Part shown: in pieces, positions 36,558-40,600 of the stretch
Layout: the number at the start of each line of letters is the position of its first letter
Numbering within the stretch: position 1 is the first letter of the stretch
NCBI GenBank assembly: GCA_977020255.1
Contig: CDROCS010001556.1
Location: 1 to 64,000 of the forward strand
DNA: 64,000 nucleotides
From: Obrimoposthia wandeli
Lineage: Eukaryota
Direction of reading: 5' to 3'
The notes under the pieces: generated by a model
Seen by the model: only the letters and a program-made list of their open reading frames with translations
The model's database searches: none
Told to the model about the DNA's origin: nothing
Made by a program: the position numbers and the translations under genes

Positions 36558-36918
36558 ATGAAGTAAGCCTCTTTTATTGTATTAATTAATATATAATTTT
36601 AGTTCCGACGAGATATTAATAAGCGGCAGAAAACTACTCGGATCGCGTTTCAATGGAGTCTTCAGTCTTAATCGTATCCCACCATTGACTCGTCTAGGTG
36701 GATATGTAATCAATACACATTCCTCTAATTTACGAGGTGAACATTGGATTGCAATACATGTTGAGAAAAAAGAAATATTTGTTTTTGAACCTCTTGGGTT
36801 ATATTATCCATCTAAATTAACATCAAAAGTACTTGATTCTAATAAAAAGGTTTATTTCAATAAAGTACATGTTCAAAACATTTTAACAAGATCATGTGGT
36901 CAGCTATGCCTATTATAG
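36558..36918 (+). CDS. Adenain-like cysteine protease, two exons (36558-36562, 36603-36918), 106 aa
   Basis: ATGAA|GTAAG...TTTTAG|TTCC splice gives MNSDEIL...FNGVFS; catalytic GEHW, FEPLG, QNILTRSCGQLC; the TAG at 36916 may be slightly premature. Confidence 0.85.
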
Positions 36919-36965
36919 CTGACATTGAAAGCATAAACAAGTAGAAACAATAAATATTTATTATC

Positions 36966-37460
36966 ATGGGTACTTGGTTTATTGATTTTGAGGCATTCAA
37001 AGAAAATAATGCATTTGTAATAAAGGAATTATGTATAATTAATGTAGATAATCTTTTACATCCATGGCATTATGTATTTAAAATGAAATCTATTTGGAAT
37101 TCAATGAGTCGTAAATCAAGAAAAATCAATAGATATTTAGTTAATCATTATCATAAATTGAACTTAACTGATGGGAATTGCTATTTTAATATAGTTGAAA
37201 TTAATAATGAAATCAAAAGTATGTGTGATGTTTCAAAGGCAATATTCTATATTTTAGATGAACATGATGGAGAAAAAGTAAAAACCATAAGAAAATATTT
37301 CCCAGAATTACAAATATTTAATTACTCTAGAACATTTAGACAGTTAGATCCTATTCCTTTTAATATTAAATGTCCATTTAAAGAACATGGAATGCATTGT
37401 GCATATAAGAAATGTCTAAGTTTAAGTTTGGATTTCTTAATTTCGAATCGGCAATGTTAA
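36966..37460 (+). CDS. DEDD-fold exonuclease-like protein, probably catalytically degenerate
   Basis: IDFEAF..F.IKEL ExoI-like motif; the ExoIII position reads HCAYKK with no acidic residue; open 164-aa frame. Confidence 0.55.
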   Translation: MGTWFIDFEAFKENNAFVIKELCIINVDNLLHPWHYVFKMKSIWNSMSRKSRKINRYLVNHYHKLNLTDGNCYFNIVEINNEIKSMCDVSKAIFYILDEHDGEKVKTIRKYFPELQIFNYSRTFRQLDPIPFNIKCPFKEHGMHCAYKKCLSLSLDFLISNRQC

Positions 37461-37631
37461 CCTTACGATTATGTCATGCATGTTTTTGTCAACTGCTGTA
37501 TGTTATGTAATACAAGCAGCTTGAATTATGATAGAGGTTAATTGCTTGTATGTAAAATAACACACATCGTCTTTTTAGTATATAAGATTCGACAAAGTAG
37601 AAATCAGTTCTTCTACAAACAAACTTAGAAA

Positions 37632-40600
37632 ATGGTAAGATTGTTTTTTCCCAAATTTTTTAAAATTTATTTTAGAATTGTAATATGCGAAGAAAACTGT
37701 GTTTCAACACAAATCACGAGGAGTGCCGAGCTCAGATGGAGCAGTACTTTGAAGTACGCAACAATGGAAGAACATTCTTTGTCTGTCCTGTGTGTCTGTC
37801 GGCAGAACAGATCGACTGGACGAGTTTTGCAGATCGACATGAAGATCACCTGACGCATTTCCAGGTTCGAGGTAAGAAATCAATTTTCAATGCTGCACAA
37901 TCTTCTCCACAATCTGTTATCACCAACTCCTCTACTGCTATCATGCCTGCTCCTGTTGCCGTCAATCCAGCAGGTCGTAATCTTCTTTTACTAATGCATC
38001 TACCCGCAAGAGAAGTGTTATGCCCACTTCAGGTAGCTCTGCATCTCATGGAATTAGTGCGGGGACTAGTCGGAATGTTATCCCTGCTAGCTCTGCTGCG
38101 AAGAGGGTGCGACCTAATACGTCAGTAAAATCGGGTTTAAGGGGTTCAATAGAAACACTCTCTCTTGATGTTTCAAGTGAAGGGATGTTGATTTTAGATG
38201 TGTCAGAATATTTTATTGATACTCTGCGCACAACTATTTCTAAATTTATTACCTGTAAGGTGCAATTCGGGGTTAAGGTAGAATTCTCTAAGGATGAGGA
38301 GATAAAGTTTTGGAATGTGTCGAATAAGGGAGTTGAATTCAGCAATGAGTCTATTGCTGATGGGATAGCAGCCCTTAATCAAAAAATTGAGAATTACTCT
38401 CAGAATGGTAGTAATTGGACGGTAACCCGTTTCCAAGAGATATCATTTATTGTCACAAAAACAACGACAATGAATTATCTTCAAGGGCGGAGTTATATTC
38501 CAACTCCTTATAGGCTTGGACTTTCACACGCTGTGATTAATGTTCAGAATACGTCAAACGTTTTCTGCTTTTTATATAGTATTTTAGCTATACTTTTTAG
38601 GGATTTATTTAAAAGTAACCCTACTAGACCTCGTCAATATGAGGTACTTTTCTCAGAGCTCTTTTATGATGAGGCCGATATGCCAATGCGTCTGGGCAAT
38701 ATACCGCGATTTGAGAGGGAGAATCCTAAACTCTCAATCAACGTATTTTCTTTCAATAATTTCGGTTGTATTCCTCCTAATGAAGAAAATTTTAAAAATC
38801 CATTCATTGATGTAATATACCGAACCACAAATCCCAGCGGCACACCGGTAAATCTTCTTCTTTTAGAAAATGATTCTGGTTTTCATTATGTGGCGGTTCC
38901 TAAACTAAGCAAATTACTAAATTTTAGGAATAAGGGACCTGCTACTCGAATTAGGTGTACTTGGTGCCATAAGTGTCTTCATGGCGTTAGGAATCCAGTT
39001 AGTTATACCAAGCACGAGGCTTTGTGCACAATGAACAAGGAGCATACGACTCTCTATCAGATGCCTTCAAATAAATATATCGCTTTTACTGATTTCAGTA
39101 AAACGGTATCACCTCCGTTTGCCGTTTACGCCGACTTCGAGGCAGTTTTGCCGCCGCATGGGATTCATCATCAGATTCATCTGCCCATTGCGGCCGGTAT
39201 GTTGATGTCTCCAATCACAGCTGCTTCAAATGGATTTACACAGGACTACTCTTTTTTCACAGGAGAATCTTGTGTGGTTTCCTTTCTTAAAAAATTGGAG
39301 GAGTTGGCTAGGGATTTTGTTCTTCCATGGTATCGAGATCATGCTGTTGCAGTAATGCGCGCGCTAACATTGGAGCAAGTAGCTAGTTTCCATGTAGCTA
39401 CTACTTGTTACCTGTGTAATAAGCGCTGCGTTAACAAGGTCAGGGATCACGACCATATGACTGGTGAATACCTTGGAGTATCTCATTCAAAATGTAATTT
39501 ATCGCGGAGAATAAATCGTTCTTTTCCTGTTATTTTTCATAACTTGAGAGGATACGATATGCATCATATCCTTAAGCATGCGATAACTCAGTTTTCACAT
39601 TGGGATATATCAGTCATACCCCAATCGACTGAGAAATTTCAGGCTATGATCGTACACGTTCATGGAATCAGTATTCGATTTATCGATTCGCTGCAGTTCC
39701 TGAATAGCTCTCTTGACAAACTCGTAAGTTACCTGGATGTTACTCCACTTACGCATTCTGTCTTCTCATCTCATCTCGTGTCCCGGAAAGGCATATTCCC
39801 GTATGACATGGCCACTTCAGAGACTGCTCTCCGGGCAATCACAAGTCTCCCGCCTAAATGGAGTGAAGCTATAGAAGATGTCCAGTATGAACAAGCACTT
39901 AAGGTTTGGGACGAGCACAGCTGTACATCTCTTTGGGATTACATGCTCCTGTATCTGAAGATCGACGTATACCTCCTTGCCGATGTTTTTACAACGTTCC
40001 GGAAGAAAGCCATCGCCGATGATTCATTGGAGCCGCTCAACTTCTTCTCGATTCCTGGTAAATTTTAGTAGTAGATTTTAGTAATCATTTTCAGTAATCG
40101 ATTTTCTGTAATTTTCAGTAACAATTCTTTTAAAAGTCTTTATTTTAATTCTTTAACAATTCTTTAAAAAATCTTTAATTTATTTTATTTCCCAGGATTA
40201 TCATTCGCGAGCGCTCTCAAGTCTTTGCTTCCTTCTACCTCGTCGCCTCATGAGATCAAGGTGAAACTTGTTCAGGATCCAGAGATGTACTCCCTGTTTC
40301 GTGAAGGCATCAGAGGAGGAATGACATTTGTCAACGAGCACAAGGTTGACGCAGTGAATGGTTGTGAGCTCTTATACATTGATGTAAATAATCTGTATGG
40401 ATGGGCTATGTCCCACTTTTTACCTTGTGGTGATTTTAAGTGGGTAACTGACCAGTTAGATTTAGGGGTTATAATTTCCGAGCTCTCATTTAAGGATTTA
40501 AGTTGTAGTAGCTTTGCTCATTTGATGGAGGTGGACTTATCCATTCCTAATGAGCTGCACGATAAACTAGACGATCTCCCCTTAGCTCCGCGAAAGGAAT

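Follow-up and report, generated by a model that had tools for sequence, protein, structure and literature searches.

The window, by which we mean the whole stretch of DNA analysed here, is a 64,000-nucleotide (nt) segment of contig CDROCS010001556.1 (assembly GCA_977020255.1) from Obrimoposthia wandeli. It contains a Maverick/Polinton element of 12,880 bp (29272..42151) in which two genes, that of the protease and that of a Cys/His module preceding the polymerase, each appear to take their start codon from a coding exon of only a few bases. The host, a eukaryote, is AT-rich and has introns. The element has terminal inverted repeats, found to be long by inverted-repeat search, and is flanked by a 6-bp target-site duplication, GATAGT, at 29266-29271 and 42152-42157. 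Encoded on its + strand are a TBP-like gene, a packaging ATPase, basic core-like open reading frames (ORFs), an integrase and putative minor and major capsid genes, followed after the putative major capsid gene by the protease, a 164-aa ORF of no named family, the Cys/His module and a protein-primed family B polymerase (pPolB). Pfam searches identified the Maverick hallmarks pPolB (PF03175, E 1.5e-11 and 1.3e-15), retroviral-like integrase (PF00665, E 1.3e-12), which a stop codon interrupts in this copy, and packaging ATPase (PF04665, Pox_A32, E 9.8e-07), and the adenain-like cysteine protease matched PF00770 at E 0.0031, under the curated cut-off, with His, acidic, Gln and Cys columns that align with those of its homologues. 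The putative capsid ORFs of the window gave no Pfam match, and are conserved and syntenic in related loci; the names ‘major’ and ‘minor’ capsid (double jelly-roll) are our presumption from gene order and general knowledge. By the features tested, and with the capsid names held as putative, the element is a Maverick. It is a decayed copy, as seen from the integrase stop, breaks in the putative capsid gene, the early end of the protease and a break of frame ahead of PolB, and it belongs to a family with a very high copy number in four contig sets from a single sample.

The protease gene opens with the coding micro-exon ATGAA (36558..36562, +), which supplies Met and two bases of codon 2 and would form part of a first exon of about 8 nt. 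This is followed by a predicted phase 2 GT-AG intron of 40 nt (36563..36602, +; GTAAGC…TTTTAG) within codon 2 and then by exon 2 (36603..36918, +), which encodes the adenain-like protein. The first whole codon of exon 2, at 36604, is in frame with the protease ORF, and His47, Glu62, Gln91 and Cys98 are counted from it; the window protease stops six residues past Cys98, sooner than in relatives. The ORF itself (36586-36918) has no Met codon; the preliminary description of this DNA had pointed out the lack of another in-frame ATG upstream of the catalytic region. Splicing would give the N terminus Met-Asn-Ser-Asp-Glu-Ile, and because unspliced RNA would read Met-Lys-stop, splicing is likely to be obligatory for this gene. 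The corresponding unit before the Cys/His module has a predicted intron of 41 nt at 37635, and both ATG|GT…TTTTAG arrangements were present as originally described; in each the GT-AG ends and a GTRAG-type donor are plain to read and the frame is restored on removal, as for a U2-type spliceosomal intron. At the level of the sequence the feature is real. A generic short-intron pattern had three matches on the + strand of the element, two of them no more than 5 nt from an ATG, and 200 shuffles of the element gave on average 1.92 matches and 0.14 ATG-adjacent matches, with at least two ATG-adjacent matches in 1% of shuffles. The listed differences and joints of sister contigs were not used as evidence on the introns: among the 40 listed of 248 differences between 36300 and 40400, none falls on either ATG, GT or AG, and among the 15 listed of 104 joints in the same interval none matches either intron. 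A consistent branch-point word was sought and none was found. The rest of the window gave no host intron-size peak (one candidate at 36-48 nt versus 2.5 expected), and the term ‘host-sized’ for these introns derives from one 39-nt candidate just before a glutaminase ORF. This glutaminase piece shares 55-63% identity with proteins of a jakobid and of animals.

The protease start was then compared with those of relatives. A HMMER search for the protease returned 891 homologues, of which the best 150, minus one match of 957 aa, made up an alignment of 149, and a metagenome scan yielded 38 related loci (L001 to L038); three of these (L007, L008 and L038) are cut off before the gene start and were dropped, leaving 35 readable loci. 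Word-index protein searches gave no match for either the protease or the Cys/His module, and IMG/VR gave none at first and then four distant partial matches (L039-L042), which do not enter into the intron counts. Of the 35 readable loci, 14 share the phase-2 intron position in codon 2, in the form ATG(A/G)A|GT(A/G)A…YAG, and the other 21 are intronless and have Met at the equivalent place. The related introns are 37-47 nt long and cover all three length classes modulo 3. When the window is included, codon 2 after splicing is Asn or Asp in 15/15, and the unspliced frame likewise ends after two codons in 15/15 (Met-Lys-stop, with Met-Glu-stop in L016). The intron-bearing loci and the window represent 10 lineages at 41-71% identity, in all of which the intron position can be read directly; the intron ends are conserved among lineages and the interiors are unalike. 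The protease unit has in these conserved ends, free interior and exact intronless counterpart in homologues the marks of a spliceosomal intron. The spliced reading also places the protein in register, with 20 residues before the GVF column in the spliced window protein and 16-24 in 104 of the 149 homologues; the closest homologue begins MNTIE, in exact register. Among the ten top homologues, four have an AT-rich N-terminal extension that ends like an intron read in frame and two start at a later Met, one of the latter (P0009) matching the protease of the intron-bearing L016. The shared position and the Met register thus bear out, for the protease, the earlier suggestion that its initiator comes from a tiny first exon. 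In L013 (5651) and L014 (494) the protease gene also has intron-like spacers close to its 3' end, which may extend the C terminus.

In a quick capsid tree (N-terminal piece, 22 rows), all 12 intron rows and the intronless L003 lie on one branch (SH-aLRT 97), with two intron changes. The simplest reading would be a single gain in the ancestor of the clade, with loss in L003 and L004 (or no gain there); these two close relatives, at 49-52% identity, are without the protease intron.

The start of the protease transcript may be predicted from a second conserved feature. The box TATAAACA (36525..36532, +), a predicted TATA-like gene-specific promoter, overlaps the stop codon of the putative major capsid gene 25 nt before ATG 36558. 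The motif ATAAACA is found 23-31 nt upstream of the protease ATG in 17/17 clade members, and in the window it occurs at 31922, 32572, 33002, 35266, 36526 and 36933, 23-34 nt before most structural-gene ATGs. Across 13 loci, 60 of 92 plus-strand occurrences of ATAAACA lie 15-40 nt before a gene start, compared with 288 of 1226 for other permutations of its letters. For 55 box-led starts in 11 lineage representatives, 47 of the box-to-ATG spacers measure 23-31 nt and one is below 23 nt. This spacing, too, is fixed in the DNA itself, and its sharp lower limit agrees with a TATA-like placement. With RNA polymerase II, a TATA element stands at about −30. We infer that the ATAAACA box acts as such an element, perhaps read by the TBP-like protein of the element; leaders of 2-8 nt, and a window first exon of about 8 nt, would therefore be expected. 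The same spacing decides between start codons, since the box is 4 nt from ATG 36537 and 14 nt from ATG 36547 and keeps its 25 nt only with ATG 36558. ATG 36547 was rejected as the protease start on this ground and because it differs in most sister contigs. Two side observations concern promoters more generally: ATAAACA for structural genes and canonical TATA with TCAGT for the window module/PolB gene, before which ATAAACA is absent, could make up two tiers of promoter, and in the distant, intronless L018, L020-L031, L033 and L035 the sequence (C/T)ATAAA(C/T)G precedes the protease ATG at an almost constant distance of 61-66 nt, within the putative capsid coding sequence.

The position of the box also bears on whether the protease has its own mRNA. 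It might instead be translated by re-initiation from a capsid-protease readthrough mRNA, with the codon-2 junction near enough to the capsid stop to escape nonsense-mediated decay. In line with this, the distance from capsid stop to protease ATG is −1 to +8 nt in 14/14 loci with the intron, and in 16/20 loci without it the two overlap by 4-14 nt; the window has no AATAAA from the capsid stop to the protease ATG. However, the gap between capsid stop and ATG in the window is 28 nt, and the box, which lies within the capsid coding sequence in relatives, has here come to lie on the capsid stop with the ATG further out and the 25-nt spacing kept. Moreover, most structural genes have this box before them, which suggests that each gene has a promoter of its own, and we consider translation from a readthrough mRNA highly unlikely.

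We favour, with moderate confidence, the explanation that both units contain host-type spliceosomal introns, gained separately in the Maverick lineage, that the protease is made from its own mRNA and that splicing is constitutive. On this explanation the ATAAACA box would drive protease transcription as a TATA element, perhaps through the TBP-like protein, the mRNA would start about 3 bases before the AUG, and a first exon of about 8 bases would be left for the spliceosome to attach to the protease coding body; the polymerase-module intron would be a younger gain behind a canonical TATA/initiator promoter. Splicing would be obligatory yet most likely constitutive, amounting to a fixed dependence on the host. 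It is also conceivable, if doubtful, that selection maintains the protease intron as a gate or attenuator, in which inefficient or regulated splicing of a cap-proximal micro-exon keeps the protease low or late. Indeed, a donor-like word occurs within 12 nt of the ATG in 14 of the 55 box-led starts, ten of which are the protease intron and the other four of which lie in open frames, so that the protease alone among these starts carries such an intron; furthermore, its position is kept in 10 lineages and its unspliced frame ends after two codons in all 15 cases. The immediate stop, however, follows automatically from a phase-2 GT(A/G)A donor, the protease donors are near consensus rather than weak and L003 and L004 do without the intron, and it is for these three reasons that constitutive splicing is preferred. 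Introns near 5' ends also tend to persist neutrally, which counts against a gate. The more elaborate proposal, that a TBP-encoding Maverick clade makes near-leaderless structural mRNAs from a private ATAAACA promoter and has a selected splicing gate, confined to the protease, some 8 bases from the cap, strikes us as unlikely in this full form.

The second unit is preceded by a canonical TATA (37579) and an initiator-like TCAGT (37604; together 37579..37608, +), from which a module/polymerase transcript is predicted to start near 37606; in the homologous loci TATA is present in 5/6 and TCA(G/T)T in 6/6. The coding exon, at the N-terminal end of the module/polymerase gene, consists of an ATG alone (37632..37634, +) and is followed by a predicted phase 0 GT-AG intron of 41 nt (37635..37675, +; GTAAGA…TTTTAG), removal of which restores the frame with the ORF 37676-38128 and gives the predicted start Met-Asn-Cys. 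The Cys/His module (37676..37885, +; C-x6-C…H-x2-C…C-x2-C) is predicted to bind zinc, had no Pfam match above cut-off and no Atlas match at 0.9 or more, and has its first Cys (37679-37681) upstream of ATG 37685. This Cys is kept in 6/6 homologues, each of which has a Met start before it and is without this intron. An in-frame TAG at 37673-37675 directly precedes the module exon, so that ATG 37632 gives the full module through splicing alone; the unspliced RNA would open an out-of-frame ORF of 73 codons that runs past ATG 37685. Since none of the six homologues has the intron, it would appear to be a local, younger gain, and the two introns have different histories, the one being clade-wide and the other seen in the window only. 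Another GTAAG, the third, occurs at 37872; nearly all sister contigs differ inside it, and it was dismissed as a donor for that reason.

Alternatively, this second unit might not be a coding micro-exon at all. Translation would then start at ATG 37685, or the module would be a gene of its own, and the 41 nt would be a chance match or have no role in initiation. ATG 37685 is in frame, the intron is found in 0/6 homologues and the module stands alone in three of six loci. A start at 37685 would, however, lose the Cys kept in 6/6 homologues, and for this reason ATG 37632, which has A at −3 and is the first AUG to follow the TATA/TCAGT pair, is favoured as the module/polymerase start; in addition, L010 has module and PolB in one frame. 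We therefore hold this alternative to be distinctly improbable. PolB in the window consists of two ORFs (37981..41625, +; PF03175) split by a predicted intron of 138 nt, and the frame break before it (about 37900-38000) separates the module ORF from the PolB ORF 37981-40068 in a region that varies among sister contigs. In L001 several short intron-like spacers lie between module and PolB, and L002 has the same spacers and ends before any PolB. The micro-exon at 37632 is thus likely to be real, and its role as the start of the polymerase depends on L010; the claim that a tiny first exon supplies the initiator is supported as likely for the module, from its first Cys, and would extend to the polymerase proper only if module and PolB form one frame, as they do there. 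Runs of 40-55-nt intron-like spacers were observed in the module gene or PolB 5' region of L001 (1680-2250), L002 (1580-2000), L003 (2540-3190, −), L004 (1930-2670, −) and L017 (12560-12910, −).

The element has two further frame-restoring GT-AG spacers at places where relatives run continuous. One, a predicted intron of 37 nt (31526-31562), lies in the TBP-like gene (31381..31891, +; PF00352, E 1.4e-11), which was also found in L010, L017, L022, L027 and L036 and lacks the spacer in the first four of these. The other is the 138-nt spacer within PolB (40058-40195), which contains an in-frame stop; L010 and L017 are continuous there.

A number of points weigh against the explanation we favour. 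Ten lineages retain the protease intron whereas other introns vary, and this could reflect selection beyond constitutive splicing. The protease tree (38 rows, short and poorly resolved) gives four intron changes, with one change in 0% of 200 bootstrap trees, and the capsid tree was the quick one, computed without bootstrap. ATAAACA overlaps Ile-Asn-Lys codons in relatives and presumably also fits the forkhead binding consensus. Splicing usually involves exons longer than about 8 nt, so that the protease transcript may start further upstream than predicted. For the second unit, there are the absence of its intron from all six homologues, the frame break between module and PolB and the isolated module of L003, L004 and L014.

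The preliminary description drew a parallel with adenovirus E2B, which would have one shared short exon alternatively spliced to several downstream genes. In adenovirus, Pol shares the start exon of pTP. The likeness is that a coding exon only a few bases long supplies the initiator Met, and donor 36563 could in principle reach acceptor 37675, the two genes being on one strand. The window exons are, however, local and separate, 1.07 kb apart and each 40-41 nt from its gene body, and one is on the protease; no single short exon lying kilobases upstream and common to two replication genes was found. Their phases differ (2 and 0), so that cross-joining breaks the frame, PolB is opposite in strand to the intron-bearing protease in L010, L011 and L017, and each unit has its own promoter-like motif. 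In human adenovirus 37 (HAdV-37) a 9-nt exon provides the pTP start and is separated from the gene body by about 3.3 kb (PMC2397415, Table 1), and the adenovirus protease coding sequence is in one piece, in the L3 unit (PMC7851563). The parallel is therefore superficial, and an E2B-like arrangement is hardly credible here; like readthrough, it fits worse than constitutive splicing or a gate. To judge from the DNA, the window feature works like a spliceosomal intron adjacent to the start codon and not like the E2B system.

Closer counterparts exist elsewhere. The compact ribosomal protein genes of microsporidia have short spliceosomal introns that lie in or immediately behind the start codon (PMC2685015); theirs, however, are cellular genes with conserved intron sequence, whereas the window type is in viral-type genes with diverged interiors. 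Dinoflagellate Maverick-like elements also contain spliceosomal introns, as introner insertions (PMC11957031), but these are mostly recent, transposon-derived and post-integration, unlike the protease intron, which is old, at one position and without shared interior. Vertebrate and nematode Mavericks resemble the element in their terminal inverted repeats, 6-bp duplication, pPolB, RVE integrase, ATPase and adenain-like protease behind a putative capsid gene, and their core genes are called intronless, with introns only in cargo genes (PMC8097293; bioRxiv 10.1101/2022.07.12.499685); short ‘introns’ are treated as decay in PMC8097293. The window element differs from them in the short predicted introns of its core genes, one of them clade-conserved, its TBP-like gene and its shared upstream box. 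TBP homologues are listed in figure legends of bioRxiv 10.1101/697771. The portions available of bioRxiv 10.1101/2023.08.22.554363, PMC8502044, PMC12721341, PMC11161782 and PMC12220804 contain no spliceosomal introns in core genes. Our literature search found no report of the protease intron or the box, its scope excluding Kapitonov and Jurka 2006, Pritham 2007, Repbase and supplements, which may describe spliced Polinton genes.

Several features of the window and related loci lie outside the start units. A second, diverged Maverick fragment (27333-28244, −), with integrase and a core-like ORF at about 71% to the main element, adjoins ankyrin ORFs. A 67-nt piece of PolB (41080-41146) is repeated inverted, at 96%, at 29788-29854, just inside the left terminal repeat, and a hairpin-forming inverted repeat lies within 20 nt of each element end (29288-29328, with its mirror near 42095-42135). 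The ORF at 4721-6106 is a long 15-nt tandem repeat that is open in several frames, and in L009 (347-1830) and L010 (6201-7684) the putative minor capsid ORF is matched twice, in tandem.

An intron position kept across lineages that are 41-71% alike suggests long-term nuclear transcription by RNA polymerase II, and host splicing, of a capsid-assembly gene. Gene callers misread such proteases, and the elements that carry them would be overlooked or thrown out by a screen for intact ORFs. The box, its spacing and the micro-exon yield exact predictions of start sites and junctions for polinton late genes, and, should the full proposal of a private promoter and a protease gate hold, the clade would offer a natural system in which to study how short a spliceable first exon can be and how polinton late genes are controlled.

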